A stretch of DNA of 64,000 nt, from contig JAWRJF010000096.1 in assembly GCA_040307645.1 (NCBI GenBank), positions 8,054-72,053 of the forward strand. The letters run 5' to 3'. Shown in pieces: positions 22,101-54,947 of the stretch; position 1 is the first letter of the stretch, and the number at the start of each line of letters is the position of its first letter. The notes beneath the pieces were generated by a model. That model had not been told where the DNA came from, searched no databases, and saw only the letters and a program-made list of their open reading frames with translations. This DNA is from Anaerovoracaceae bacterium. Its GTDB lineage: Bacteria > Bacillota > Clostridia > Peptostreptococcales > Anaerovoracaceae. Both the position numbers and the translations under genes were made by a program.

Positions 22101-22757
22101 TTATTCTTCTTCCATTGGCTTTAAGTCTGGGCTGAAAATCAATTTGCAGCCAGTAGCAGCCTGGATGTCTTCTTTAGTGTAATCAGGATGTAATTCTGTA
22201 ACTACAATTCCTTCCTCAGTAACTTTCATAACTCCCATTTCAGTTACGATTAAGTCTACACATTTTTCTGCTGTTAAAGGTAATGAACACTTTTCTAGGA
22301 TTTTATGGTTTCCTTTTTGAGTGTGAGTCATAGCAATGATAACTTCCTTAGCACCAACTACTAAGTCCATAGCACCGCCCATTCCAGCTACCTTTTTACC
22401 TGGGATAATCCAGTTAGCAAGGTCTCCGTTTTCTGCTACTTCCATTGCTCCTAAAACTGTTGCATCTACGTGTCCACCTCTTACAATTCCGAAACCTGTT
22501 GCTGTATCAAAGAAGTTTACTCTTGGAAGAACTGTTACATATGCACCACCTGAGTTGATAATATCTGTATCTTCTTTTCCTTCTTCTGCAACTGCATCAA
22601 GTCCTACGAATCCATTCTCTGAGTGAAGAGTTACTACAATATCATCTGAAAGATAATTTGCACACATAGTAGGAAGGCCAATTCCAAGATTTACAACGTC
22701 GCCATCTTTAAATTCTTTTGCTACTCTTCTAGCAATTCTTTCTTTTATATCTGCCAT
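22101..22757 (-). CDS. atoA: 3-oxoacid (acetoacetate:butyrate/acetate) CoA-transferase subunit B
   Basis: 218 aa with the SENG catalytic-Glu motif (LHSENGFVG). It overlaps the subunit A gene by 13 nt. Confidence 0.85.
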   Translation of the reverse strand: MADIKERIARRVAKEFKDGDVVNLGIGLPTMCANYLSDDIVVTLHSENGFVGLDAVAEEGKEDTDIINSGGAYVTVLPRVNFFDTATGFGIVRGGHVDATVLGAMEVAENGDLANWIIPGKKVAGMGGAMDLVVGAKEVIIAMTHTQKGNHKILEKCSLPLTAEKCVDLIVTEMGVMKVTEEGIVVTELHPDYTKEDIQAATGCKLIFSPDLKPMEEE

Positions 22758-23458
22758 TTTTTCTCTCCTTCCACAACTGCATCAACCATAACTCCTGCGA
22801 TTGCATATGTATCTGGGTCTAATTCACCGATTTCAACAACTTTTTCACCAGCTAAGATAACATGGTCAGCTGCGCCAGCCATTACATAGTTAAAGTTTTT
22901 AGTTGCTTTTGCACACATGAAGTTACCGAATTTATCACATACTGTTGCTCTACAAAAAGCATAATCAGCACGAAGAGGTCTTTCAAGTAAGTATTTCTTA
23001 CCATCAATTGTTAATACTTCTTTTTTTCTGCCTAATTCATCTAGTTCTTCTTCCATTAGAGTACCAACTCCTGTTGGTGTTAAAACTCCACCAAGACCAT
23101 AGTTATAAGCTCTGATCTTTTCTGCTAAAGTTCCCTGTGGAACTAAAGTATATTTTAAAGTACCTGCAGATATTTGTTCGTTAATTTTAGGATTTACGCC
23201 AATATGTGAAGCAATTAAATGGTCAACCATATGGTTTTCTAATAGTTTACCAATACCTCTTGCTGTTTTAGCTCCATACTGACCGATGTCTAATCCACCG
23301 TCATTACCGATAACTGTTAAGTGCTTTACACCTTTTCTTACTAAAGCGTCCATTAAGATTTCTGGTGAACCTGTTCCTAAGAATCCACCGACCATAATGG
23401 TCATTCCGTCTTTAACGCCTGCAACTGCTTCATCTGCAGTTATTACTTTGTTAATCAT
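22745..23458 (-). CDS. atoD: 3-oxoacid CoA-transferase subunit A
   Basis: 237 aa with the AtoD/ScoA-type N-terminus MINKVITADEAVAGVKDGMTIMVGGF. Confidence 0.85.
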   Translation of the reverse strand: MINKVITADEAVAGVKDGMTIMVGGFLGTGSPEILMDALVRKGVKHLTVIGNDGGLDIGQYGAKTARGIGKLLENHMVDHLIASHIGVNPKINEQISAGTLKYTLVPQGTLAEKIRAYNYGLGGVLTPTGVGTLMEEELDELGRKKEVLTIDGKKYLLERPLRADYAFCRATVCDKFGNFMCAKATKNFNYVMAGAADHVILAGEKVVEIGELDPDTYAIAGVMVDAVVEGEKKWQI

Positions 23459-23498
23459 TTTAACGTCACCTTTCTATTTCATATTTTAATTAAACAAA

Positions 23499-24854
23499 TT
23501 AAACTAAACCAACTATTAGGAAACCACCACAAACAACAATTCCTACAAAGAATAACGTAACTAAACAATACCCCATAATGTCTCTCGCTGAGAGCCCTGC
23601 AATACCAAGTGCTGGTAATGCCCAGAATGGCTGAATCATATTAGTCCACGCATCTCCCCATGCAATAGCCATTCCGGTAATTGATGGGTCAACTCCTAAT
23701 GTTTGCCCTGCCGGCATCATAATCGGACCTTGTACAGCCCATTGTCCTCCGCCAGAAGGAACAAAGAAGTTTACGATACCTGCTGAAAGGAATGTAAATA
23801 GTGGGAATGTTGACTGATTAGATATTGATACAAAACCATTACTAATTACTGCTGCAAGAGATTCACTAGCCTCCGGAGCATATGTCATCATACCCATAAT
23901 TCCTGCATAAAAAGGGAACTGAAGTATTATTCCAGCTGCGCCTTTAGTAGCATCGGAAATTGCTCTTACGTAATTAATTGGTGTTTTATGGCAAATTATA
24001 CCTAACACTAGGAATATAAAATTAACGATATTTAAAGTAATATTAAATCCGTTATTCATAAAATAATATATTAAATAAACTACACCTGCTATTGATATAA
24101 CACCAGATGCAATTGCACTGTTCTCGATTTTTTCTGCCGGTGTAACCGGAGCTTTATACTCTATAGCTTCGTCTATCAACAAGTTAGGATCAACTACAAC
24201 TACTTGATCGTGACTTGGATGCATTTTCGCATTAATAAATGGTAGACAAACTAGTATTACTAAAATCATAATTATATTGTATGGAGCGAATATTGTCATA
24301 GAAGTTGATATAGCTTCAGTAACTGCTCCACCTGTAGCTGCAGCCAAAGCTTCTTCGCCTGGCGTTGCTAAGGCTAATGGAATAGAACCAGAAAATCCTG
24401 CATGCCAGATTACGAAACCCGAATATGCAGATGCGATAAGTAAACGATAGTCAATACCTTTTACCTGTCTTGCAATTTCTTTAGCTAAAATAGCTCCTAC
24501 TACTAGTCCAAACCCCCAGTTAATCCAACATGCAATAAGCGAAAAGAAAGTCACTACTATAATCCCCTGTACCGGTGATTTCGCTAATGATGCAATCTTT
24601 GCCACAACTTTTTTTATTACTGGTGCATTAGCAAAGGCGTTACCTAATACTAATACTAAGGCCATCTGCATTGAGAATGCTAGAAGATTCCATACTCCTC
24701 CACCCCAAGCATTAACCAATTCAATTGGACCTGCCCCTGTTGCTGGGATAGCAGCCACGAATACAATAACAGTTAAAATGATGCAGAAAATAAATGGATC
24801 TGGCAAATACCTATTTACCAAATGTACGCATCCGTTGGACAATTTTTTAAACAT
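23499..24854 (-). CDS. atoE: Short-chain fatty acid transporter (AtoE family)
   Basis: Polytopic membrane protein upstream of atoDA. I moved the start to the ATG at 24854 (MFKKLSNG...), which has a GAGGTG RBS. The track's 41-aa extension covers the promoter. Confidence 0.8.
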   Translation of the reverse strand: MFKKLSNGCVHLVNRYLPDPFIFCIILTVIVFVAAIPATGAGPIELVNAWGGGVWNLLAFSMQMALVLVLGNAFANAPVIKKVVAKIASLAKSPVQGIIVVTFFSLIACWINWGFGLVVGAILAKEIARQVKGIDYRLLIASAYSGFVIWHAGFSGSIPLALATPGEEALAAATGGAVTEAISTSMTIFAPYNIIMILVILVCLPFINAKMHPSHDQVVVVDPNLLIDEAIEYKAPVTPAEKIENSAIASGVISIAGVVYLIYYFMNNGFNITLNIVNFIFLVLGIICHKTPINYVRAISDATKGAAGIILQFPFYAGIMGMMTYAPEASESLAAVISNGFVSISNQSTFPLFTFLSAGIVNFFVPSGGGQWAVQGPIMMPAGQTLGVDPSITGMAIAWGDAWTNMIQPFWALPALGIAGLSARDIMGYCLVTLFFVGIVVCGGFLIVGLV

Positions 24855-24915
24855 TTTACACCTCTCAATATAATTATAATTTTGCATAGTTAAAAATTTA
24901 ACCATGTTCGCCATC

Positions 24916-24944
24916 ATTATAATCCCGAAATGTAAAATTGTCAA
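24916..24944 (-). promoter_or_regulatory. Consensus sigma-A promoter for atoE-atoD-atoA
   Basis: Minus strand reads TTGACA (24944-24939), a 17-nt spacer, then TATAAT (24921-24916). Confidence 0.55.
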
Positions 24945-24986
24945 ACTTTTGTCACAATTAATACAATTTAAATTCATTTAATGATA

Positions 24987-25261: not shown

Positions 25262-26056
25262 TTAGCGATCAGAAATGTTAGCTTTATCCTTCCAACCTCT
25301 CTTTTCAACTTCTTGCATGATGTAGGACATTACGTGCTCAGCATATTTTCCTGGGCCGAAACCTGCATCGTAACCTAATTCTTGTGCAAGTTCGTGAGAA
25401 ATACGAGGACCACCACAAATTAAAACAACCTTTTCTCTAAGACCTTCAGCTTCAAGAAGTTCAACCATCTTAGTTAAGTTCATGATATGAATATCTTTTT
25501 GTGTTACTGTTTGTGATACTAATATTGCATCAGCATTAACTTCCTTAGCCTTTGCGATAAGTTTTTCGCAAGGAACCTGTGAACCCATGTTATATGGGAC
25601 TACATGCTTAAATCTTTCAAGACCGAAGTGTCCGTGGAATCCTTTCATTTGAATGATAGCATCGATACCTACTGTATGTGCGTCAGATTCAATTGATGCT
25701 CCAACTACTACAATATCTCTACCGATATTTTCACCAATCCATTCTCCACATTCAACTCTGTCTAACACATTACCCTCAACCTTAGGTACTTTGATAGCTG
25801 TGTAATCGATTGTTTGTTGAGCTGCTCCGTAAGCTACAAAGAAAGTAAATCCAGGAGCTAATTCGTGATAATATGTTATGCTTGGTTCATCAAAACCAAG
25901 TTTCTTTATATATTGCTTAGCACATTCTTCTGCTTCTTCACCATAAGGAACAGGAAGTGTGAAAGCCATTTCTACTTTACCGTCGTTTAATGTGTCACCA
26001 TAAGGTTTTACACATGTTAAGTCAGCTTTTGTTACTGCTGTTTTATTTTCTGACAT
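25262..26056 (-). CDS. kamE: Beta-lysine (D-lysine) 5,6-aminomutase beta subunit, B12- and PLP-binding
   Basis: 264 aa. DxHxxG cobalamin-binding motif (ESDAHTVGID), Rossmann-like B12 domain, adjacent to kamD. Confidence 0.9.
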   Translation of the reverse strand: MSENKTAVTKADLTCVKPYGDTLNDGKVEMAFTLPVPYGEEAEECAKQYIKKLGFDEPSITYYHELAPGFTFFVAYGAAQQTIDYTAIKVPKVEGNVLDRVECGEWIGENIGRDIVVVGASIESDAHTVGIDAIIQMKGFHGHFGLERFKHVVPYNMGSQVPCEKLIAKAKEVNADAILVSQTVTQKDIHIMNLTKMVELLEAEGLREKVVLICGGPRISHELAQELGYDAGFGPGKYAEHVMSYIMQEVEKRGWKDKANISDR

Positions 26057-26069
26057 TTAAGCCACCTCC

Positions 26070-27623
26070 TTATTTATGTTCCATGAATCTTTTTGTGAAT
26101 GGGTTGAAGTAATTTTCGCCTCTTGCGCATACGCCTTCAAGACCGTGTCCACCGTCTTTTGGACGCTTAACTCCACCGAACTTACCTTTTTCGATAGTTG
26201 AGAAAAGTCCTTCTTCTTCAACTTCTGCAAGCAGTGCGTCAGCTTTTTTAAGAACGTCTTGTGCACGGCTTTGGATGATACCATCCTTCTTAAATTCAAC
26301 TTCTTCACCGATATGCTTACAGTTGTTGAAAATGTATTGAGCATTTTCAATTGAAAGATATCTATCATGCATATGAGGTGTGTGGATAGCTTCTGTAAGC
26401 ATACCCTGTAATAATAATGACTGTTGTGACCAAATTGCTACTAAGTTAAATAAAGCATCTTGGATATGTCCTTTAAAGATGTTACCAGTCATGAACTTTG
26501 TAGGTGGCATGTATTTTAATCTTGCCTTAGGGAAGATTTCTCTTGCCATAATAGCCTGTGATAATTCAAGTAAGAATCCGTCTTCAGTGTTAGGATCCAT
26601 TTCGAAAGCGTGGCCTAGACCCATTTGTTCTTCCGGAATGTTAGCTAATACTGCGAACTGTTCGTTGATAAACTGAGATGCTGTAACTGTATGAGCTGCT
26701 TCTACAGCGTCGTCAGTTGTTAAGTAGTTATCTTCACCTGAGTTGAAGATAATACCACAGTATCCGATGATAACTCTTGACATGAACTGGTCAACAAGAG
26801 TTCTCTGCATGTTGATATCTCTGAATAGGATTCCGTAGATAGCGTCATTAAGCATAACGTCTAATCTTTCTAATGCTCCCATTGCAGCGATTTCTGGCAT
26901 ACACATTCCTGAAGAGTAGTTACATAATCTGATGTATCTTCCAACTTCTTCACCAACTTCGTCAAGAGCTTTTCTCATGATTCTAAAGTTTTCCTGTGTA
27001 GCATATGTTCCACCGAAACCTTCTGTTGTAGCACCGTAAGGTACATAGTCTAATAGAGACTGAGCTGTTGTTCTGATTACAGCAATAATATCAGCACCCT
27101 GACGAGCTGCAGCCTGAGCCTGAACAACGTCTTCATATATGTTACCAGTAGCTACGATAACATATAGATAAGGTTCTGGACCTGATCCAATTCTATCAAG
27201 ATATTCTTGACGTTTTGCCTTTTGCATATCAATCTTTTTGAAAGTTTCATTGATTGCAGGCTGTAAAGCTTCTTCTGCTTCTTCTTTAGTGCATGTTGGA
27301 AGTTTGGTAATCTCTAACTTTCCTTGTGCAATATCCTCTGCGATTTCCTGTGGTGTTTTGCCAGTTTGAACGATGGCATTACCAATCCAGTAAGCAACTC
27401 CAGTAGAAAGAGCGCCAGCTTCTTTGATGTGGTCAACTACTACGTTTGGAAGTGGGTTATCAACGTCATCCACTCCGTCTACACCCAATAACCTTAAGAT
27501 TGTTCTTTCAGTAGAAACTGTAGTGTGTCTTGCTATGAAATCTTGCATATCCTTAGCGATATTCTTTGCATGATTACGAGCACTGTCAACAACCTTAAAG
27601 TCAAGATTTAATTTGCTTTTCAT
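26070..27623 (-). CDS. kamD: Beta-lysine (D-lysine) 5,6-aminomutase alpha subunit (TIM barrel)
   Basis: 517 aa. Size and position next to kamE, within a kamA/kdd/kal cluster. Confidence 0.88.
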   Translation of the reverse strand: MKSKLNLDFKVVDSARNHAKNIAKDMQDFIARHTTVSTERTILRLLGVDGVDDVDNPLPNVVVDHIKEAGALSTGVAYWIGNAIVQTGKTPQEIAEDIAQGKLEITKLPTCTKEEAEEALQPAINETFKKIDMQKAKRQEYLDRIGSGPEPYLYVIVATGNIYEDVVQAQAAARQGADIIAVIRTTAQSLLDYVPYGATTEGFGGTYATQENFRIMRKALDEVGEEVGRYIRLCNYSSGMCMPEIAAMGALERLDVMLNDAIYGILFRDINMQRTLVDQFMSRVIIGYCGIIFNSGEDNYLTTDDAVEAAHTVTASQFINEQFAVLANIPEEQMGLGHAFEMDPNTEDGFLLELSQAIMAREIFPKARLKYMPPTKFMTGNIFKGHIQDALFNLVAIWSQQSLLLQGMLTEAIHTPHMHDRYLSIENAQYIFNNCKHIGEEVEFKKDGIIQSRAQDVLKKADALLAEVEEEGLFSTIEKGKFGGVKRPKDGGHGLEGVCARGENYFNPFTKRFMEHK

Positions 27624-27634
27624 CCTTTTTCTCC

Positions 27635-29398
27635 TTATTTAATATATTTTTTCGCCCCATCAATTATCTCAGAGCTTATACCAAGCATCTTTGCAATATT
27701 AAGGGCATCCTTAGGTACTTCACCTTTTTGTTCTACTCTACATAGCCTATAATCCATGTATTTGGAAATTATATTTATCCTATCACGACGGTTAGCATAT
27801 TTGATTTCTCTGTCCAAAAGTGTAAAATCTGCATTCGCTAAACCTATAACTTGCATATTTACTACGCCTTCTTTCTCAGTTACAGTCTCAAAATGTGTCG
27901 TAATTAAGGAAATATACGGTTTTAACATGAGATAATCTACAATGGATTTTGTCAAAGCTAAACCTTCAACAGGGTTAGTTCCACTTGCAATCTCATCTAC
28001 TAAAATAACAGAACGGTCTCTGCCATTATCTAAAATTTCTTTTAGCTCTTCCATTTCTGAACCAAAAGAGGATAGACCACGTTCAACGGACTGGCTGTCA
28101 CCTATTAAAATCTGCATGTAGTTGGATAAACCAATCTTTGCCTTTTTAGCAGGAACGAAAAATCCGTATTGTGCCATAATTGCTATCTGTCCTGCGAGCT
28201 TAAGGGAAATCGTCTTACCTCCCATATTCGCTCCTGTGATACAAGTAACTCCATCCTTTAATGCAATGGAAATCGGGCAAAATTCCTTGCCCTTAGACTT
28301 AAGAATTCCTTCTACCTGAAGGTTTCTACCATCTTCATATTCTATAATATGTTCCTGAACAATCTCAGGCTTAGATAAATTTCTATTTATTGCATAAATT
28401 CCACGGGCCATGGCTAACTCCAATTGGCCGATGGTTTCACAGTTCTTTAAAAGCTTATCCCTGTGTTTTGAAATCTTCTGTGAAAGAACTTCTCTTATTC
28501 TATCTTCTTCAGACTCTATTTCCATATTCAACTTTTCCATTGTCTCAGTGAACTTATGAACTTCTTCCGAAGGCTTAAGCTGGAATGTCACACTCATGTA
28601 GTCTTGATCTTTTTCTTCTAATTCACTTAGAGCTTTTATCTTTTCAAAATCCGGATGAGATCTTGCAACTACAATGTCAAACTTAGGTGTCAACTGAACT
28701 CCATGTTGTCTTCTAAGCTCTTCCCTTGCTTTCTTTTGAACACGCCTAATCTCAAGCTCATATTCTCTTTTTTTCTTTCTATAATCACCTAACAGTGAAC
28801 TGAATTCATCATATATATAGAAAGTATTCAATCTATCTTTTCTCGGATCAAGTTCATCTAATAAGTCCTCTGTATCTTCGAGAATATACATTTCAGGAAC
28901 ATAATGAACTCCATTCTTTTCATTTTCTTTTAAGAAATTGACTTCTTCCTCTAAAGAATCTTCATCATCTGAAGTACTGCTGTCCTTAACCTGCTTAATG
29001 CAGTGACAGCTTACATAGTCTCCTACTTCCTTGAATTTTGTCAACTTTAAAAGTTGTCTCATTTGTAGTAACAGAGATTTTATCTCATAAATTTCAACAA
29101 CTGAAAGCACAGAGTTTTCGCTTCTTGAAATAGTATTAGAAGAATCCTTAATCTCCATGAATACCTCTTGAATTTTATCCTTTAAAATCGGGTTTTCCTT
29201 GACAAAGCCAATCATTTCGTCGATACGATTAAGTTCGTCTCTTAGAGCATCTTCTTCTCCTGGGAAAAAAGGTCTCATTTCCTTTAAGGCTTTCTTACCA
29301 AAGGGTGAAATCACATCCATCTTCAGCATAACATAATCCAAGCCGGTCTCTCGTCTTGTCTTAACATTAGATAATCTTCTGTTTGCACCGTCTAACAT
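27635..29398 (-). CDS. MutS-domain-V ATPase lacking a mismatch-binding domain; putative aminomutase reactivase component
   Basis: 587 aa. MutS-type ATPase motifs: Walker A GANMGGKTISLK, Walker B VILVDEIASGTNP, ITTHF. The N-terminal half is coiled-coil-like with no MutS domain I. It sits between kamA and kamD. Confidence 0.75.
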   Translation of the reverse strand: MLDGANRRLSNVKTRRETGLDYVMLKMDVISPFGKKALKEMRPFFPGEEDALRDELNRIDEMIGFVKENPILKDKIQEVFMEIKDSSNTISRSENSVLSVVEIYEIKSLLLQMRQLLKLTKFKEVGDYVSCHCIKQVKDSSTSDDEDSLEEEVNFLKENEKNGVHYVPEMYILEDTEDLLDELDPRKDRLNTFYIYDEFSSLLGDYRKKKREYELEIRRVQKKAREELRRQHGVQLTPKFDIVVARSHPDFEKIKALSELEEKDQDYMSVTFQLKPSEEVHKFTETMEKLNMEIESEEDRIREVLSQKISKHRDKLLKNCETIGQLELAMARGIYAINRNLSKPEIVQEHIIEYEDGRNLQVEGILKSKGKEFCPISIALKDGVTCITGANMGGKTISLKLAGQIAIMAQYGFFVPAKKAKIGLSNYMQILIGDSQSVERGLSSFGSEMEELKEILDNGRDRSVILVDEIASGTNPVEGLALTKSIVDYLMLKPYISLITTHFETVTEKEGVVNMQVIGLANADFTLLDREIKYANRRDRINIISKYMDYRLCRVEQKGEVPKDALNIAKMLGISSEIIDGAKKYIK

Positions 29399-29400
29399 AA

Positions 29401-30420
29401 TTACATCCTTACATCAATTACTGGGATATCCGGAATTGCTTTTTCCATCTCCTCTAATAAAAGTCGATTATCAAAAGTATATCCTAAAGGCGCCCAAGGG
29501 TTTACAGTTATTAATGCAATCTCAATTTTCTTGAGAACTCTTGGTTTAAAACCTTTTTTTCTAAATTTACCCCAGTCCATAGGGTTAATAAATATTTTTG
29601 TAGGGTCCTTTAAAACAAACTGTACTTGTTTAAGTTTTTTAGGACTTATATCTGAAATTACACTGTTAGTAAATGCCCCCGGAATATATACATGAGTAGT
29701 ATCTTCAGTAATTGCTTCATCAATATCTCTCGCTGCTCCTAATCCGGTTACAAGGTCAAGTTTCTTAAATTCTCCCTTAGCATTTATTATCATAATCTTA
29801 TCGTCAAAATTATTATTTTCAATTGCAATTCTTTGCGGCCCATCTTCTAATTCATCTGTGCCATAAAGATGCACTACATGTGCTGTTTCTTCCACCACTT
29901 TACTTATTTTACGGGAAAGTACAGCTCCTGTTGCAAGTATGATTGCATCTGATGTATCCGGTGATGCTATTGTTTTTCTATCTATGGCACCATCTATCAT
30001 GACTAAATCACATCCTGCTTCTAGCATTTCATCACAAAGAAGCTTCTGCTCCTTATTAATTACAGGGCCTGCAACTTGTACATAGCCTGCTTCTCTAACT
30101 CTACATATAAGTAGGGTTCCTATTGCCGTAGAGTAATTTGTCCTCTTTACAATTTCTAAACCTGCGTCAGATAGTTCATACAACAGAGAGGGAACCGCCA
30201 CTAATGTGTCTACATCTAAGTAAACTCTTGGCTTTTCTGTACCTGTAACTAAATCCTGTGTTTCTCCATCTCTACCTGTTGAAGTAATACCTAATCGAAC
30301 GCCTTCATCCATTGCTTCTTCTATGAGGTAATTTAGCGCAGTTGTCTTACCTGCATTTTTCGCCATTCCAACTATAGACAAGGTTTTGTATTTTTTTGCC
30401 AATTCTGACATTGTTGCCAT
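29401..30420 (-). CDS. P-loop NTPase of unknown function; putative partner of the MutS-like protein
   Basis: 339 aa. Walker A GMAKNAGKTT near the N-terminus and DGAIDR downstream. It is separated by 2 nt from the MutS-like gene. Confidence 0.6.
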   Translation of the reverse strand: MATMSELAKKYKTLSIVGMAKNAGKTTALNYLIEEAMDEGVRLGITSTGRDGETQDLVTGTEKPRVYLDVDTLVAVPSLLYELSDAGLEIVKRTNYSTAIGTLLICRVREAGYVQVAGPVINKEQKLLCDEMLEAGCDLVMIDGAIDRKTIASPDTSDAIILATGAVLSRKISKVVEETAHVVHLYGTDELEDGPQRIAIENNNFDDKIMIINAKGEFKKLDLVTGLGAARDIDEAITEDTTHVYIPGAFTNSVISDISPKKLKQVQFVLKDPTKIFINPMDWGKFRKKGFKPRVLKKIEIALITVNPWAPLGYTFDNRLLLEEMEKAIPDIPVIDVRM

Positions 30421-30478
30421 AATATGCTCCTTTTAAACATTCCTTGACTTACGTATAAATCTTGCAGTTATTTTAAAG

Positions 30479-30506
30479 TTTGGAAGGCTATTTGCAGCCT
30501 CCCAAA
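30479..30506 (-). terminator. Intercistronic 11-bp-stem hairpin after kamA (possible partial terminator or processing site)
   Basis: Minus strand reads TTTGGGAGGCT-GCAAAT-AGCCTTCCAAA followed by CTTTAAAAT. Confidence 0.3.
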
Positions 30507-30536
30507 CATAAATTTATTTTTCTAGGAACTTACAAA

Positions 30537-31796
30537 TTAGTGAGTGTTTCTTTCATGTCTAGCTAAGTTTGAAGGTTCCATTGATTTGATTTCTAAACCT
30601 TCACCTAAAGCAGAAACTCCCTGGTATTTGTAAGTCTTCTTGCCTGTGCAGTAGTCACAGTTACATTCTAATTCTGGAAGATGTGGTTCTGTATAAGTAG
30701 TAATTACACCTTCGTAGTTTCTCAAGATTACCTTGTTAGGAGTCTGAGAAATGATATACTGTGGCATTACTGGAGTCTTACCACCACCACCAGGAGCGTC
30801 AACTACGAATGTAGGTACTGCATATCCTGATGTATGTCCTCTTAGACCTTCAATGATTTCGATACCTTTAGCAACTGAAGTTCTAAAGTGTTCGATACCA
30901 ATTGATAAGTCACAGATGTAGATGTAGTAAGGTCTTACTCTGTTCTTAACTAATTTCTGAACTAATTCTCTCATGATATGTTTACAGTCATTAACTCCTC
31001 TTAAAAGTACTGACTGGTTTCCAAGAGGAACACCTGCATCTGCAAGCTTTCTGCAAGCTTCAGCAGCTTCTTCAGTTAATTCGTTTGGATGGTTGAAGTG
31101 AGTGTTTAACCAGATTGGATGATATTTCTTTAACATTGCGCAAAGATCATCTGTAATTCTCTGAGGCATTACAACTGGTGTTCTTGAACCGATTCTAACG
31201 ATTTCTACATGAGGAATCTTTCTTAGTTCGCTGATGATGTATTCTAATGTTTCATCTTCAACACAAAGAGCATCTCCACCTGAAAGAAGAACGTCTCTTA
31301 CAACTGGTGTTCTTCTGATGTAATCGATACATGCATCGATATCTTCTCTTGATCTAGCTCCGTCAGTTTCTCCTGCAAGTCTTCTTCTTGTACAATGTCT
31401 GCAGTACATTGAGCACTGGTCAGTGATTAAGAATAAAACTCTGTCTGGATATCTATGAGTTAAGCCAGGAGCTGGAGAGTCAGCGTCTTCGTGAAGTGGG
31501 TCTGCATCATCTGCTTCTGATCTGTGCATTTCAGCTAATGTAGGAACTGCCTGCATTCTTACTGGATCTCTTGGATCGTCTGGATCCATTAATGATGCAT
31601 AGTAAGGAGTAATACCTACTCTGAAACCGCCCATAACTTTTTCAATATCAGCTTTTTCTTTTTCTGTAAGGTTAACAACTGCACAGATATCTTCTACTGT
31701 TGAAAGTCTGTGAGAAACCTGCCAATGCCAGTCGTTCCACTGTTCATCTGTAACATCCTTGAATAAAGGAATGTCTTTCCAATTTCTTCTTGCCAT
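30537..31796 (-). CDS. kamA: L-lysine 2,3-aminomutase (radical SAM)
   Basis: 419 aa. CSMYCRHCTRRR radical-SAM motif and the KamA-type N-terminus (WKDIPLFKDVTDEQWNDWHWQ). Confidence 0.95.
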   Translation of the reverse strand: MARRNWKDIPLFKDVTDEQWNDWHWQVSHRLSTVEDICAVVNLTEKEKADIEKVMGGFRVGITPYYASLMDPDDPRDPVRMQAVPTLAEMHRSEADDADPLHEDADSPAPGLTHRYPDRVLFLITDQCSMYCRHCTRRRLAGETDGARSREDIDACIDYIRRTPVVRDVLLSGGDALCVEDETLEYIISELRKIPHVEIVRIGSRTPVVMPQRITDDLCAMLKKYHPIWLNTHFNHPNELTEEAAEACRKLADAGVPLGNQSVLLRGVNDCKHIMRELVQKLVKNRVRPYYIYICDLSIGIEHFRTSVAKGIEIIEGLRGHTSGYAVPTFVVDAPGGGGKTPVMPQYIISQTPNKVILRNYEGVITTYTEPHLPELECNCDYCTGKKTYKYQGVSALGEGLEIKSMEPSNLARHERNTH

Positions 31797-31835: not shown

Positions 31836-32867
31836 TTAAGCATATAACTCAGAGAATAAGTTTCTTAACTTATCATTTTCTCTTAAGCACTGTAATGTGA
31901 TTTCTGCATGGCCTTTAGTGTATCCGTTACCGATAACCATATCGATATCTTTACCAACACCTTCAGCACCAAGAGCTGCTTTAGTGAAGCTTGTAGCCAT
32001 TGAGAAGAAGTATACAATACCTTCATCTTTACAGCAAAGGATTGATGACATTTCTGTGTTTTCGATGTTTACTACGTTAATTACTAGGTCTGCTAATTTT
32101 CCGTCTGTAGCTTCCATGATTTTATTGTATAGGCCAACTGCATCTGTTGCGTCTGCAATCATGTATTCGTCAGCAACGTCAACGCTCTTAGCTCTGTTAA
32201 TTGATCTTTCGAAACCGTCTACGCAGATTACTTTACCAGTAACTCCAGCTCTCTTCTTTGCTTCATATAGGCAAAGGATACCAGCTTTTCCGCCGCCACC
32301 GATTACAACTACAGTGTCGCCAGGCTTTACTAATTTAGCAGTCTGAGCAGGAGCTCCTGCAACGTCTAATGCTGATAATGCAAGACCTTCTGGAATATCA
32401 TCTGGAAGAACTGCATAAAGTCCACTCTGGAATAAGATAGCCTGTCCTTTTACGTCAACCTGGTCAATTTCTGGTCTAACGTCAGTGATTTCTTCTACCT
32501 TTAGTGGAGTAAGTGATAAAGATACTAATGTAGCAACCTTATCTCCAACTTTTAATTCACCTTCAAAGTTAGGTCCGATTTCTTTAACAGTACCGATTAA
32601 CATTCCGCCGGATCCTGTCCATGGGTTTTTATGTTTACCTGTTTTTTCGATAATGTCAAGAATAGTAGCTTTGATTTTTTCAACATCTCCGTCTGCTCTT
32701 CTTGAGATTTCAGTAAATGATGCTGAGTCAATATTTAAAGTCTGAACATCAATAAGAACCTCATTATCGTAAATTTCCATAGTGTTGTCAATAACATCTG
32801 CTGGTTGTGGTAATACTCCCTTTGGAGAAATTACTCTGTGTGTACCATAAGGGCATCCTTTTTTCAT
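31836..32867 (-). CDS. kdd: L-erythro-3,5-diaminohexanoate dehydrogenase
   Basis: 343 aa. Rossmann loop VVVIGGGGKAGI. First gene of the kamA/kamDE operon. AGGAGG RBS. Confidence 0.85.
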   Translation of the reverse strand: MKKGCPYGTHRVISPKGVLPQPADVIDNTMEIYDNEVLIDVQTLNIDSASFTEISRRADGDVEKIKATILDIIEKTGKHKNPWTGSGGMLIGTVKEIGPNFEGELKVGDKVATLVSLSLTPLKVEEITDVRPEIDQVDVKGQAILFQSGLYAVLPDDIPEGLALSALDVAGAPAQTAKLVKPGDTVVVIGGGGKAGILCLYEAKKRAGVTGKVICVDGFERSINRAKSVDVADEYMIADATDAVGLYNKIMEATDGKLADLVINVVNIENTEMSSILCCKDEGIVYFFSMATSFTKAALGAEGVGKDIDMVIGNGYTKGHAEITLQCLRENDKLRNLFSELYA

Positions 32868-33011
32868 AATTACATCCTCCTAAAAATCATTTAAATATAT
32901 GTAAACTTATGCTTTAGCATAACTCTAACCAAATACATTATATAGCAAATAGTTTTTTGTGTCCACTCTCAAGACGGTCTCCGAACCCAATCACCGAAAA
33001 AATATTTAGGC

Positions 33012-33059
33012 GAACCGTTTTGTGTTCGAACGGTAAATTGCTCGAACCAGTTATGGTTC
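33012..33059. promoter_or_regulatory. Two GAAC-N8-GTTC palindromes inside the kdd leader
   Basis: GAACCGTTTTGTGTTC at 33012-33027 and GAACCAGTTATGGTTC at 33044-33059. The second sits within the perfect 9-bp-arm palindrome CTCGAACCA/TGGTTCGAG. Confidence 0.55.
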
Positions 33060-33139
33060 GAGCATTAAATAGAGGTTTATTACGCTTTTATGCGCGAAAA
33101 GATTTTATGATATTTTTTCATTATCATGTATCTTAACAA

Positions 33140-33155
33140 TGCAAAGGCCGTGCCA
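33140..33155 (-). promoter_or_regulatory. Sigma-54 (-24/-12) promoter of the kdd-kamA...kamE operon
   Basis: The minus strand reads TGGCAC-GGCCT-TTGCA, a perfect match to the TGGCAC-N5-TTGCA consensus. Confidence 0.8.
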
Positions 33156-33207
33156 ACTTGTCTGTCTACATTTTCAGCCTTTTGCAGGCCTTCCCCTCTT
33201 ATGCCTC

Positions 33208-33254
33208 GAACCGTTTTGTGTTCATGTCAGATTTTGGCGAACTGTTTTGTGTTC
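33208..33254. promoter_or_regulatory. Two GAAC-N8-GTTC palindromes upstream of the sigma-54 promoter (probable activator binding sites)
   Basis: GAACCGTTTTGTGTTC at 33208-33223 and GAACTGTTTTGTGTTC at 33239-33254. They are spaced 31 bp apart and centred roughly 90 and 120 bp upstream of the expected start site. Confidence 0.6.
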
Positions 33255-33261
33255 AAAACTA

Positions 33262-35334
33262 TTAAAGTTGATATTTTTTCTTTTTTCTTACTAGTTGAGT
33301 CTGACTAATTCCTACGGCCTTTGCGGCTTTTCTTGTGCTTCCATATTTTTCGCAAGCATACTTTAATATATTTTTTTCGAAGTTTTCCACCATGCTTTCA
33401 AGATTTATGTTTTGTTCCTCATCACCAGGATCCATAGAGTCAGAGCTGGTAGTCTCGAATATCTCTGCGTGCAATTCCTTCATAACGTCAAATAATGTTA
33501 TGTTTTCTCCTTTTGCAGCAATTATTAATCTTTGGACTATATTTTCAAGCTCTCGTATATTACCCGGCCAGTCACATTGTTTCAAGTAGTCGATAGCATC
33601 TTCATCAATTCCTCTTTTTATGGAGAATTTTTCACTGTAAATCTTAAGGAAGTGTCGAACAAGTGCCGGTATGTCGCCTGTTCTCTCACTTAAGCTAGGC
33701 ACTCTTATTCTCACCACGTTTAGTCTGTAATACAAGTCTCGTCTAAAGCTTCCCTCTTCAATAATATCTTCTAAATCCCTGTTGGTTGCAGAAATTATTC
33801 TTACATTTGTTTTTACAGGTTTTACTCCCCCAACTCTAAAAAATTCACCGTCTTGAATAACTCTTAACAGTTTAGCCTGCATGTCCAGGGAAAGTTCCCC
33901 TATTTCGTCTAGAAATATTACACCATTATCGGCAAGCTCAAAGTATCCTTTTTTACCATTAGGGCTAGCACCTGTAAAGGCTCCTTTCTCATATCCAAAA
34001 AACTCCGATTCCAGTAAAGATGGTGAGATAGACGCGCAGTTTACTTTTATAAACGGAGCGACTTTCCTGCTACTGTTTTTCTGAATTATATTAGCAACCT
34101 TTTCTTTTCCGACTCCCGTTTCCCCCGTAATCAGGACATTGCAGTCATATTTTGATACCGACAGCATTTCATCAAGAACTGCCGCCATAGCTCGGCTTTC
34201 ACAAACAAAGTCTTCCAACATGGTCTGCCTCTGCCCCGACGCCTCAATCAGCCTAGTCTCACGGTTAATAGGATAGGCAGGGTCGTCATATATGGTAAGG
34301 TTAGAAGATGTTGCCCCTTTTATATAAGGGTCAAGTTCCCTTACCAAATCAATGTCGAATTCGTCGTAAGCTTCAAGATACCCGTCTGCGCATCTTATAT
34401 CCAGCTGCCTCGAAATTGATTCCGTTATGTAAAGCGCAATGTTATAGTTGTTTATAAGATTTGCAAAGACAACGGTACCTCCTGACTTAGTAGCCAGGAT
34501 ATTTATAGTTTCCGCCCCCGGAATATCAGCACAGTTAACAGAAACATCAAAAAGAGAATCCGCATTAAGTTTTTCAATACAATCCATAGGTTTTAGAATA
34601 TCCAAATAGTGTATTTCGCTAAAGGTAGAAGATAATAATTCGTCTATTGTTTTTCCTTTTACAACCAGATCGGTTTTTTTATCTAACAAGCAAACGATTT
34701 CCGCTCCATGTTTAGCTACTTTTCGTATTGCATATCCAAATAGAAGGTTACTCATCAAGTTGTTTCCAACAATCAAAAACTTCTTTTTACCAACGGCAAT
34801 ATTACTTATTCTATAAAGCGTCCCCGACTCATTTAAGGTAAACAACAGCAAGTCGGTAGGAACTCCCTGGGGTTTTCTTACCAGAGGTACCTCGGAATAT
34901 AAAACCGCATAACCCTCCACTTCTATTTGGCCAAAAGCCTTATCAATAGATGTTATTTTCGATATATATATTGGAACAGATGCCAAAGATGCGTTACAAA
35001 CTACTTCTTCTCCAGGCTTTAGATTTTTTTTATTATCAAATTTACTGCCCACTTCGTCAACAACGCCGTAAAACAATCCTCCTGTATCCGTTACAGGGTT
35101 ATGTAATTTCCCCCTCTTTATTACAATATCTATTATCTTTTGTTTTATTTTTTCTTCATTATTATTTACTTCCAGACAAATTTGTTTAAAGCTTGTTCCT
35201 TCCAAGTGTATCCTTTTTATATTTACTTTTATTTCTTCAGGTGTTATCACTCTGCTATTATCTAAGCGCCACGCAGATGTCGGTAACACATGCTGAGGCT
35301 CTAATACTCTATTAGTACCATAATTGTGGGTCAT
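33262..35334 (-). CDS. Sigma-54-dependent transcriptional activator with a Kdd-like N-terminal domain
   Basis: 690 aa. AAA+ sigma-54 interaction module (GETGVGKE, FFGYEKGAFTGA, IISATNRDL) and a C-terminal Fis-type HTH (GSTRKAAKAVGISQTQLVRK). The N-terminal ~345 aa are colinear with the adjacent Kdd. Confidence 0.9.
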   Translation of the reverse strand: MTHNYGTNRVLEPQHVLPTSAWRLDNSRVITPEEIKVNIKRIHLEGTSFKQICLEVNNNEEKIKQKIIDIVIKRGKLHNPVTDTGGLFYGVVDEVGSKFDNKKNLKPGEEVVCNASLASVPIYISKITSIDKAFGQIEVEGYAVLYSEVPLVRKPQGVPTDLLLFTLNESGTLYRISNIAVGKKKFLIVGNNLMSNLLFGYAIRKVAKHGAEIVCLLDKKTDLVVKGKTIDELLSSTFSEIHYLDILKPMDCIEKLNADSLFDVSVNCADIPGAETINILATKSGGTVVFANLINNYNIALYITESISRQLDIRCADGYLEAYDEFDIDLVRELDPYIKGATSSNLTIYDDPAYPINRETRLIEASGQRQTMLEDFVCESRAMAAVLDEMLSVSKYDCNVLITGETGVGKEKVANIIQKNSSRKVAPFIKVNCASISPSLLESEFFGYEKGAFTGASPNGKKGYFELADNGVIFLDEIGELSLDMQAKLLRVIQDGEFFRVGGVKPVKTNVRIISATNRDLEDIIEEGSFRRDLYYRLNVVRIRVPSLSERTGDIPALVRHFLKIYSEKFSIKRGIDEDAIDYLKQCDWPGNIRELENIVQRLIIAAKGENITLFDVMKELHAEIFETTSSDSMDPGDEEQNINLESMVENFEKNILKYACEKYGSTRKAAKAVGISQTQLVRKKKKYQL

Positions 35335-35358
35335 TTTCTGTTCGCTCCTTTTTTATCT

Positions 35359-35374
35359 GAACATAATTCGGTTC
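35359..35374. promoter_or_regulatory. GAAC-N8-GTTC palindrome upstream of the kal sigma-54 promoter
   Basis: GAACATAATTCGGTTC, ending 30 nt upstream of the -24 element. Confidence 0.5.
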
Positions 35375-35404
35375 ACATTTTTCGTCATTTCAATGATAAC
35401 CCAT

Positions 35405-35420
35405 TGGCACATATTTTGCA
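35405..35420 (+). promoter_or_regulatory. Sigma-54 (-24/-12) promoter of kal
   Basis: TGGCAC-ATATT-TTGCA, a perfect consensus match, about 90 nt upstream of the kal ATG. Confidence 0.8.
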
Positions 35421-35512
35421 ATATTAATTATAGGTGTTTACAATCATAAAGAATACTTATATAATAATTGTTGACACAAGTTTATAATAATTAATTTAAG
35501 GAGATTTATAAA

Positions 35513-35905
35513 ATGGAAGAAAAAGTAACATCATTAATCAGAGTTAGAATGTCAGCTAAAGACGCTCATTACGGTGGAGAATTAGTAGATGGAGCTCATA
35601 TGGTACATCTTTTCGGAGACGTAGCTACTGAACTATTAATTAAATTAGACGGAGACGAAGGTTTATTCTGTGCTTATGACAACGTAGAATTCTTAGCTCC
35701 TACTTATGCTGGAGACTACATTGAAGCTTACGGAGAAATTACAAAGATCGGTAATTCTTCAAGAAAAATGAAGTTTGAAGCAAGAAAAGTTATCGTTTCA
35801 AGAAAAGACATCAACGCATCAGCTGCTGATTTCTTAGAAGAACCAATTGTAGTTGCTAGAGCAACTGGTACTTGCGTAACTCCAAAAGAATCAAAGAGAA
35901 AATAG
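35513..35905 (+). CDS. kal: 3-aminobutyryl-CoA ammonia-lyase (hotdog fold)
   Basis: 130 aa. Size and composition fit the small hotdog-fold Kal of the lysine fermentation pathway. It is co-localised with kdd/kamADE and has its own sigma-54 promoter. Confidence 0.7.
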
Positions 35906-35964: not shown

Positions 35965-35992
35965 CTGGACGCTAAAATGCGTCCAGTTTTGC
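35965..35992 (+). terminator. Rho-independent terminator after kal; second copy of the dispersed terminator module
   Basis: CTGGACGC-TAAAAT-GCGTCCAG-TTTTGCT. Confidence 0.75.
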
Positions 35993-54051: not shown

Positions 54052-54947
54052 AATTTCTAATTGTTGATGCCTTTACCGATACTCTTTTTGGTGGTAATCC
54101 TGCCGGGGTTGTCATTATTCCAGCTGGACAGGATTTTCCTAAAGAAGAAATCATGATAAAAACTGCAGCTGAGCTTAGATATTCAGAAACAGCTTTTATT
54201 AAGCAGCTAGGTGAACGAGAATTTAATATCCGTTATTTCACTCCCGCTGCAGAAGTTGAACTTTGTGGCCATGCAACCATCGCTTCGTTTTCCGCGCTCT
54301 TACACCTTGGTATGATAGCAGATAACGCCACCTACGTAAACCATACTTTAGCGGAAACTATTAATGTAAAAGTTGAAAATGGTTTTGTCATGATGGATAT
54401 GGCAACACCAATGGAAATTAACACTATCTCCCAGGAGGCTGCACTGAAAGAGTTGTACGAGATCATGGGGATTGAGTATATTCCTCAATCTGCAAAGCAG
54501 CTTAATGGCCATCAAGCAACACTTTTGCCAAAGTTAATTTCTACAGGTCTTCCAGATATAATGATGCCTGTTAGGACTAAAAAAGATTTAGAAAAGCTGG
54601 CACCAAATATGAGTGCACTTTCCGATCTATCGAAAAAGTATAACGTGGTAGGAGTTCATGCCTTTACCCTTGATACTTGCGGTGATGAAACAGTAAACTG
54701 CCGAAATTTTGCTCCTCTTTACGATATCGATGAAGAAGCTGCAACAGGTACTTCCAACGGAGCTCTTACTTATTACCTATATTTAAATGGTCTTTTAAAA
54801 GATACAGATAAATGCAAGGTTATTCAAGGTGAAGCTATGTCAAGGCCTTCAGTGATACTAACCTCAATAGAAGCTACTAAAGAAAAATGTGCTATAAAGG
54901 TAGGCGGCAGCGCAGTAATCCTGGCCCAGGGAGAAATTTTTATATAA
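54048..54947 (+). CDS. PhzF-family isomerase-like protein
   Basis: 299 aa with the FLIVDAFTDTLFGGNPAGVV N-terminus and ELCGHATIA motif. Confidence 0.85.
   Translation: MKFLIVDAFTDTLFGGNPAGVVIIPAGQDFPKEEIMIKTAAELRYSETAFIKQLGEREFNIRYFTPAAEVELCGHATIASFSALLHLGMIADNATYVNHTLAETINVKVENGFVMMDMATPMEINTISQEAALKELYEIMGIEYIPQSAKQLNGHQATLLPKLISTGLPDIMMPVRTKKDLEKLAPNMSALSDLSKKYNVVGVHAFTLDTCGDETVNCRNFAPLYDIDEEAATGTSNGALTYYLYLNGLLKDTDKCKVIQGEAMSRPSVILTSIEATKEKCAIKVGGSAVILAQGEIFI

Follow-up and report, generated by a model that had tools for sequence, protein, structure and literature searches.

Why should a transcriptional activator carry, as its N-terminal half, a full-length relative of the enzyme encoded beside it? 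The question is raised by a 64,000-nucleotide stretch of an Anaerovoracaceae bacterium genome (contig JAWRJF010000096.1, positions 8,054 to 72,053; hereafter the window, with coordinates counted from its first letter), in which a single open reading frame (ORF) of 690 codons, read from 35334 to 33262 on the minus strand, encodes a sigma-54 enhancer-binding protein (EBP) with a sensor region like Kdd, the L-erythro-3,5-diaminohexanoate dehydrogenase of lysine fermentation. The reading that we favour, at a probability of roughly 65% and on the strength of sequence comparison, is that this protein is a one-component sigma-54 activator of lysine fermentation whose sensor is a non-catalytic, metabolite-binding derivative of Kdd.

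The first-pass annotation of the locus had described the N-terminal half, by eye, as colinear with the whole of the Kdd encoded about 400 bp downstream, and statistical comparison bears this out. Residues 1-345 (34300..35334, minus strand) align with the 343-residue product of kdd (31836..32867, minus strand) over 331 colinear residues with 5 gaps (BLASTP E = 8e-43, 27% identity, 50% positives); every regulator/Kdd peptide pair quoted in that annotation is present, and the gap between the two genes is 394 bp. The annotation gave no strand for the regulator gene; translation of the plus strand yields stops alone, which places the gene on the minus strand. In the profile search that it had called for, the NCBIfam model Lys_ferment_KDD (NF052381) matches residues 6-171 with high significance (E = 1.4e-41), with a score of 142.4 bits that lies below the equivalog cut-off of 200 bits, whereas the adjoining Kdd scores above it (264.2 bits). 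Pfam ADH_zinc_N gives a weak match to Kdd and none to the sensor, and Pfam KDD_N (PF26370) already labels a KDD_N plus EBP architecture automatically. Among sequences in the PDB, phmmer matches the sensor only to the 3,5-diaminohexanoate dehydrogenase (3,5-DAHDH) of Candidatus Cloacamonas (entries 7DL0, 7DL1, 7DL3 and 7DL7; E = 7.5e-31 for 7DL3, residues 4-333).

Structure prediction, which had also been proposed, points the same way. AlphaFold2, supplied with residues 1-350 and a 67-row alignment of sensors and enzymes, returned a model with a pLDDT of 91.2 and a pTM of 0.88. When this model was searched against the PDB with Foldseek, the seven best matches were all 3,5-DAHDH (7DL*) chains with TM-scores of 0.70-0.85, led by 7DL0_B (TM-score 0.85, RMSD 3.0, 345 columns), and zinc-type medium-chain dehydrogenases/reductases (MDR dehydrogenases) came next at a TM-score of about 0.5. 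Because the 7DL* chains rank so far above other MDR dehydrogenases, the complete two-domain fold of Kdd is judged to be retained in the sensor.

To see what has happened to the enzyme's residues within that fold, 78 sensor domains (that of the window and those of 77 orthologous genome loci, described below) were compared by column with 135 enzymes, of which 105 come from the same loci and the window and 30 are distant, partly actinobacterial sequences. In the former dinucleotide-binding loop (residues 186-198, FLIVGNNLMSNLL; 34741..34779, minus strand) the regulator has FLIVGNNLMSNL where Kdd has VVVIGGGGKAGI, and the enzyme pattern G190-x-x-G193-K194-S195-G196 reads G-N-N-L-M-S-N in the window and G190-N191-N192-L193-L/M194-x-N196 across the sensor family. 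G193, K194 and G196 are 100% conserved in the 135 enzymes; N192 and N196 are 100% conserved in the 78 sensors. The loop had been called degenerate, and the canonical glycine loop is indeed lost throughout the orthologues, but it has not simply degenerated: a near-invariant, Asn-rich motif stands in its place, from which we conclude that the loop was re-purposed under selection. In a Rossmann fold with Leu and Asn where the second and third glycines belong, the pyrophosphate should no longer be able to approach in the canonical way. Since these are the two substitutions seen, NAD(P) binding has likely been lost.

The remodelling extends well beyond the loop. Of the 116 columns that are at least 90% conserved among the enzymes, the sensor family as a whole retains 50 and has other residues in 66; in the window sensor 54 are retained, and in the adjoining Kdd 114. 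Other enzyme invariants have given way to residues that are near-invariant in the sensors (Q21 to T, N45 to H, D47 to E, G85-S86 to D-T, V169 to E, D307 to Q, N314 to D and H320 to Y), and D168 is replaced too, mostly by N (77% of sensors). The replacement residues are themselves 92-100% conserved among the 78 sensors, which are 69% identical to one another, and this conservation argues for purifying selection on a new function. Identity between sensors and enzymes is 34% over residues 1-180, 22-25% over residues 181-300 (the Rossmann part) and 11% over residues 301-345, against 47%, 36% and 50% between enzymes of different phyla, so that by this comparison the cleft-lining segment 301-345 is the most remodelled part of the sensor. 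The sensors are equally distant (27%) from neighbouring and actinobacterial Kdds, implying either that the split between sensor and enzyme is old or that divergence was fast afterwards.

The sensors do keep G75-K76..N79-P80.T82..G85-G86, E275, E305 and G318-Y319, together with the block RGKLHNPVTDTGG, which is 100% conserved among them, and D218, the Asp at the end of beta-2, which is invariant. Pocket residues were assigned from conservation and one review. According to that review, E310 of the solved 3,5-DAHDH is a hydrogen-bond partner of the NADPH carboxamide and G323 lies 3.8 Å from the nicotinamide amide (PMC9902596); E305 of the sensor corresponds to E310 of 7DL3, and G318 to G323. The domain therefore shares full-length sequence and fold homology with Kdd enzymes and departs from them in three respects (curated cut-off, glycine loop and invariant residues), for which reason the regulator should not be filed as a Kdd. 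With its fold kept, its cofactor motif lost and the replacements under purifying selection, it has the profile of a pseudoenzyme-type effector domain.

The other half of the protein was annotated as a canonical AAA+ sigma-54 module with a Fis-type helix-turn-helix (HTH), and domain searches agree. A linker (residues 346-375; 34210..34299), without a Pfam match and variable in the alignment of orthologues, leads into the sigma-54 interaction domain (residues 378-543; 33706..34203; PF00158, Sigma54_activat, E = 8e-67), which contains the Walker A motif GETGVGKE (residues 404-411; 34102-34125), the Walker B motif FLDEIG and the GAFTGA loop (residues 451-456; 33967-33984). AAA_lid_14 is matched as well, and the chain ends in the DNA-binding HTH (residues 644-690; 33265..33405; HTH_50, E = 7e-13, with a weak match to HTH_8), all on the minus strand. 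PrdR is the top NCBIfam match of this C-terminal half. Together with target promoters of the -24/-12 type that have upstream sites, these features are those of a bacterial EBP.

The promoters are found on either side of the regulator gene, in its two flanking intergenic regions. Exact matches to the sigma-54 consensus TGGCA-N6-TTGCW number three in the 64 kb, and two of them are here: TGGCACGGCCTTTGCA (33140..33155, minus strand) faces kdd and has a counterpart in the majority of orthologous loci that bear GAFTGA, and TGGCACATATTTTGCA (35405..35420, plus strand) faces kal, the divergent gene for 3-aminobutyryl-CoA ammonia lyase (35513..35905, plus strand; NF052388, 190.6 bits, above cut-off). 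All five occurrences of the palindrome GAAC-N8-GTTC in the window fall in the same two regions, where 0.39 were expected and no shuffle reached five. One pair of predicted activator sites, conserved in orthologous loci (33239-33254 and 33208-33223, minus strand), is spaced 31 nt apart and precedes the kdd sigma-54 promoter by about 60-100 nt; the fifth palindrome (35359..35374, plus strand) lies 46 nt upstream of the kal promoter. The second pair (33044-33059 and 33012-33027, minus strand) sits between the kdd sigma-54 promoter, upstream, and a sigma-70-like promoter, downstream. The latter, TGGACA-17-TATAAT (32937..32965, minus strand; a consensus match only), and its kal-proximal counterpart, TTTACA-17-TATAAT (35437..35465, plus strand; a consensus match that persists in the GAFTGA-less loci below), are the two best sigma-70-like matches of the region (11/12 each). 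Each stands downstream of a sigma-54 promoter, an arrangement that suggests dual-promoter (sigma-54 and sigma-70-like) control of both target genes.

The same layout is found well beyond the window. An exact-sequence look-up gave no database match to the window regulator, and the matches listed in a protein homologue search, at 601 aa or less, included no complete orthologue of about 690 aa; full-length orthologues were therefore taken from genome loci. When one genome per GTDB species was scanned, 297 encoded relatives came to light, and the best 80 loci were retrieved. Relatives with informative titles belong mostly to Anaerovoracaceae or Peptostreptococcales and include Emergencia timonensis, Ihubacter, [Eubacterium] infirmum, Aminipila, Clostridium aminobutyricum, Aminicella lysinilytica and Sinanaerobacter. 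The fusion is a single ORF of 677-704 aa in 77 of 77 complete loci. A survey of its co-occurrence with kdd and kam genes, also suggested at the outset, found kdd directly after the regulator on the same strand in 69 of 72 loci, kal upstream and divergent in 72 of 75, and kamA downstream in 59 of 67, a synteny that recurs in some 70 Anaerovoracaceae species. Two tandem enzyme-like kdd genes follow the regulator in 32 of the 69 loci (L001, L003-L009, L011, L012, L014-L018, L020-L023 and others), and one does in the window; the fused copy could plausibly have come from such a tandem duplication of kdd beside an EBP gene.

Across these loci the palindrome has the consensus T-GAAC-M-N-A-W-W-T-C-G-GTTC-R. 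Among 33 measured site-promoter pairs on the kal side, 31 have it 45-46 nt ahead of TGGCA, and on the kdd side it lies 68-184 nt upstream of the promoter (one at 223), often paired at a distance of 31-32 nt. In about 1.3 Mb of fetched flanking sequence the only further palindrome-plus-promoter pair is the rearranged kdd promoter of locus L057. These patterns support the proposal that GAAC-N8-GTTC sites are bound by the regulator or have, at the least, evolved together with it.

The case for direct control draws its greatest strength from the co-evolution of GAFTGA with the -24 element. The motif G[AS]FTGA is kept in 60 of 77 orthologues and lost in 17, which have unrelated residues instead (L021, L026, L028, L031, L032, L038, L039, L041, L051, L053, L054, L056, L058, L059, L069, L077 and L078); [Eubacterium] infirmum NCTC12940 and Aminicella lysinilytica DSM 28287 are examples of such genomes. 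A -24/-12 promoter stands in at least one of the two flanking regions of 55 of the 58 testable GAFTGA-bearing loci, and in both regions of 39; none of the 17 GAFTGA-less loci has a match in either. When the kal-side regions of 16 of these 17 were read by eye, the -24 TGGCAC was found destroyed and the palindrome kept, and in many GAFTGA-less regions a promoter of the TTTACA/TGGACA...TATAAT type is still recognizable. GAFTGA was lost at least six times independently on a neighbour-joining tree, and the Walker B Asp is replaced by Asn in 5 of the 17. From their sequences, these orthologues look like conversions to sigma-70 control in the style of TyrR, and the losses presumably follow loss of rpoN. 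Taken with the two sigma-54 promoters, the enriched palindromes and the conserved synteny, the joint loss upholds the earlier proposal that the regulator acts on the pathway of its ancestor, and its direct control of the kdd-kam operon and of kal is, on this sequence evidence, strongly supported.

In the mechanism that we propose, the GAAC-N8-GTTC palindromes of both flanking intergenic regions are most likely the binding sites of the C-terminal HTH, and the AAA+ ring, through GAFTGA, would remodel the sigma-54 holoenzyme at the two -24/-12 promoters. One of these would drive kdd-kamABCDE and perhaps the CoA-transferase genes, the other the divergent kal. The sensor would retain the two-domain fold and part of the active-site cleft (GK..NP.T, E275 and E305) without turning over a substrate, and its ligand would be a committed amino acid of the lysine pathway: 3,5-diaminohexanoate, which is the ancestral substrate, beta-lysine or lysine. 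Ligand held in the cleft between the lobes would close them, releasing the AAA+ domain from inhibition and allowing hexamer assembly and activation. Lobe closure as a signal is an idea taken from MDR dehydrogenases in general; the spread of TM-scores among the 7DL* chains is the sole hint here that the lobes may be mobile. 3,5-Diaminohexanoate as the inducer is a parsimonious guess from ancestry, and because residues 301-345 are remodelled, with an Arg at the A314-equivalent position, beta-lysine or lysine is equally possible. If the inducer is a pathway intermediate, the proximal sigma-70-like promoters could supply basal KamA and KamDE.

Other uses for a Kdd-like domain are conceivable, and we found three of them (docking onto Kdd, residual cofactor binding or activity, and a structural role) less supported than the favoured reading. 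Part of the evidence comes from a wider set of fusions. A HMMER pass over 1.84 billion representative sequences returned 716 matches, and the best 150 of these contain 21 distinct full-length (679-717 aa) clusters with a Kdd-like domain and an EBP, 28-70% identical to the window sensor. K78, N81, T84 and E272 are kept in all 21, and E302 in 19 (Asp in P0151 and P0170). In loci L083, L086 and L088 the regulator gene is followed by an exact sigma-54 promoter (in L088, at 10249). Two further matches have other compositions: P0204 (484 aa) is an enzyme-like Kdd (102 of the 116 invariants) with a C-terminal extension that by eye resembles the window Kal, and P0243 (1063 aa) has a Kdd-like domain followed by an extension of about 650 aa.

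The constant company of kdd, immediately after the regulator gene in nearly every locus, would suit a domain that mimics the enzyme to hetero-oligomerize with real Kdd through the dehydrogenase interface, reading its abundance or substrate-bound state, much as DhaR reads DhaK/DhaL; retention of the whole two-domain fold, and hence potentially of an oligomer interface, is in keeping with this. The strongest conservation in the sensors, though, falls in motifs of the active-site cleft (RGKLHNPVTDTGG, NESGT, VNCADIPGAET and FANLINNYNIALYITE), which are not obviously surface patches, and fusions of the P0129 type control operons with no kdd called within about 8 kb downstream. P0129 (L088, 8001-18109) instead precedes genes for CoA-transferase A/B, a thiolase, two class-III aminotransferases, an HpaB/AbfD-like protein and an acetyl-CoA-hydrolase-type transferase, an operon for a different amino-acid fermentation, to which the sensor family has thus spread, and which is possibly the Kat variant of lysine fermentation or an aminobutyrate or aminovalerate route. 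We consider docking quite unlikely.

The retained nicotinamide-amide contact E305, G318-Y319 and the invariant beta-2 Asp D218 raise a second prospect, that of a trigger enzyme or redox sensor whose N-terminal domain binds NAD(P)(H) non-canonically, perhaps oxidizes 3,5-diaminohexanoate, and so reports substrate together with redox state or turnover. The wider family lends this some substance. P0147 has 87 of the 116 enzyme-invariant columns, an intact GAEGKIG loop, and Q21, N45, D307, H320 and R329 kept; P0137 and P0144 have 69-70 columns with intact GAGGRSG and GASGRIG loops; P0164, P0165 and P0188 have 59-67 with partial loops; and the remaining clusters, including the window protein, have 40-57 and have lost the loop. 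P0147 is followed by kdd, an amino-acid permease, BKACE (kce) and a 4HBT hotdog protein, P0137 by kdd, and P0165 by BKACE, a gene of no assigned function and DctP. As these distant members keep an intact GxxGK/RxG loop, cofactor-competent fusions probably exist or existed. In essentially all of the 78 sensors considered here, by contrast, G193 is replaced by Leu, K194 by Leu or Met and G196 by Asn, and Q21, N45, D47, D307, N314 and H320 are replaced as well; the sensor, moreover, falls short of the Kdd equivalog cut-off and of an ADH_zinc_N match. Catalysis by the regulator is not needed, because a true kdd, often in two copies, is encoded next door. For the window protein and its orthologues we hold this prospect to be very unlikely. 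One might go further and see in the whole family a living record of stepwise conversion, from a cofactor-binding and possibly catalytic dehydrogenase-EBP to a cofactor-free sensor, the early types gated by substrate and NAD(P)(H) and the later ones re-tuned to other amino-acid operons and repeatedly re-wired from sigma-54 to sigma-70, a scenario that is speculative and that we rate as rather improbable in its entirety.

Least probable of all is that the N-terminal domain is a structural relic, a dimerization or stability scaffold without signal input in a constitutive activator whose effect depends on how it is itself expressed or on a further regulator, for although some EBPs such as PspF are controlled in trans and offer a precedent, the sensor is as conserved among orthologues as the AAA+ half (64-83% against 50-81% identity), invariant polar residues occupy the former cofactor and substrate sites where a mere scaffold would not call for them, and the domain survives at least six independent losses of sigma-54 dependence.

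Several observations nevertheless weigh against a cofactor-free, Kdd-derived sensor that works through sigma-54. By sequence, E305, G318 and the invariant D218 leave a small door open to some nucleotide binding. The 11% identity of residues 301-345 to the enzymes, and the Arg at the A314-equivalent position, mean that the ligand may not be the ancestral substrate. EBP sites typically lie 80-150 nt upstream of the promoter, and the kal-side site, only 46 nt upstream of its -24 element, is closer than this norm. Finally, rpoN was not found within the 64-kb window.

The genes of the predicted regulon follow one another on the minus strand. Downstream of kdd come kamA (30537-31796), kamB (29401-30420), kamC (27635-29398), kamD (26070-27623) and kamE (25262-26056), each an NCBIfam equivalog match above cut-off; together (25262..31796) they encode lysine 2,3- and 5,6-aminomutases with a reactivase. 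A TIGR00366 transporter-like gene and CoA-transferase subunits A and B (22101..24977, NCBIfam matches above cut-off) come next. No minus-strand intergenic terminator was found between kdd and the CoA-transferase genes, and a 12/12 sigma-70 match (24944-24916, minus strand) lies inside the first 60 nt of the annotated transporter ORF (24916-24977); the transporter and CoA-transferase genes may thus be co-transcribed with the kdd operon or have a promoter of their own at 24944-24916. Because the TIGR00366 family match begins only at residue 46 and the promoter lies inside the ORF, the true start of this gene is probably further downstream. Beyond kal there is a terminator-like hairpin (35965-35986, plus strand). 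A search for kce in the window found none, and in the 270-nt kdd leader Rfam, run at permissive E-values over 32800-35600, detected neither a riboswitch or T-box nor RNA of any other kind.

Three further features were noted. Between the palindrome and the -24 element of the kal-side regions of L001-L078 (in the window, 35375-35404, plus strand) there is a conserved motif, TTTCAATGATAA(C/A)CCA, which persists in degraded form in GAFTGA-less loci and could serve to bind a second protein or to bend the DNA. The one exact -24/-12 match of the window outside the regulator's flanks, TGGCAAAAGTGTTGCT (54515-54530, minus strand), lies inside a PhzF-like ORF without a nearby palindrome and is probably due to chance. 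A 1343-aa ORF at 59907-63938 (minus strand) combines BspA-type leucine-rich repeats with DUF4430 and is probably a surface protein.

The ability to ferment lysine, with butyrate, acetate and ammonia as products, is a notable trait among anaerobes of the gut and mouth. A full-text literature search covering Kdd, regulators of kamA/kdd/kal and pseudoenzyme EBPs found no regulator described for the pathway and no description of the present one, in line with the first-pass annotation, which was aware of no characterization. What the locus offers is a concrete regulon consisting of the regulator, two sigma-54 promoters, a GAAC-N8-GTTC operator and candidate inducers, in a family represented in about 300 species-level genomes, mostly Anaerovoracaceae. 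The graded states of the cofactor loop make a natural experiment on how enzymes become sensors, and the recurrent loss of GAFTGA in correlation with the -24 element makes another on how sigma-54 regulons are re-wired to sigma-70. Biosensors of beta- or diamino acids could also be built on the scaffold of the sensor domain.

The system closest to the sensor is the enzyme itself. Kdd/3,5-DAHDH (EC 1.4.1.11; 7DL0, 7DL1, 7DL3, 7DL7; PF26370) is colinear with it over its full length and has the same two-domain fold, and both have the GK..NP.T..GG motif and equivalent residues E272/E275, E302/E305 and G315-Y316/G318-Y319 (Kdd/sensor). They differ in that the sensor is about 27% identical to any Kdd, has its Gly-rich loop replaced and 66 of 116 columns changed, and is fused to AAA+ and HTH domains. 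The closest system to the output half is that of the clostridial amino-acid EBPs (PrdR, OrdR, LeuR, HiaR and others), which have PAS, GAF, ACT, PrpR_N, V4R, CBS, Fe-S or receiver sensors (Nie et al. 2019, PMC6615313). PrdR, OrdR, LeuR and HiaR share with the window protein a one-component design, an AAA+ domain with GAFTGA, a C-terminal HTH, an adjoining Stickland or fermentation operon, a -24/-12 promoter and upstream palindromes, and none of them has a Kdd-like sensor. The same reconstruction of clostridial sigma-54 regulons recognizes 39 EBP groups and 11 sensor domain types, hydrogenase-like modules (Fe_hyd_lg_C) among the latter, and includes neither a regulon for lysine, kdd or kamA nor an EBP of the lysine pathway, nor any sensor resembling Kdd (PMC6615313), so the statement that this is not one of the usual EBP sensor modules stands.

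Enzyme folds whose catalysis is dead or changed serve as effector domains in other regulators: an aminotransferase fold in MocR/GabR, a sugar-kinase fold in the ROK repressors NagC and Mlc, and a further case in SorC/CggR. The logic is shared, a metabolite-binding enzyme fold fused to a DNA-binding output that controls a related pathway; here, however, the fold is that of an MDR-type dehydrogenase, the output is an AAA+ sigma-54 module and not a simple HTH, and the donor enzyme is encoded in the regulated operon. In trigger-enzyme systems such as PutA, and DhaR with DhaK/DhaL, a pathway enzyme or its paralogue likewise conveys metabolic state to transcription, with the enzyme staying active or acting in trans, whereas the present regulator carries the paralogue, probably inactive, as a fusion in cis. 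TyrR, a GAFTGA-less EBP homologue with target promoters of the sigma-70 type, resembles the 17 GAFTGA-less orthologues in having kept AAA+ and HTH domains, lost the sigma-54 contact loop and adopted sigma-70-type targets; the window protein differs from it in keeping GAFTGA and sigma-54 promoters, and the losses seen here are recent and repeated within one orthologue group. Given these precedents, including Fe_hyd_lg_C in EBPs, the principle of an enzyme fold as effector domain is not new. What is new is the sensor class itself, an MDR-type dehydrogenase paralogue added to the EBP repertoire from the regulated pathway, its descent from an enzyme of the very operon under regulation, the gradation of cofactor-loop states and the repeated re-wiring from sigma-54 to sigma-70.

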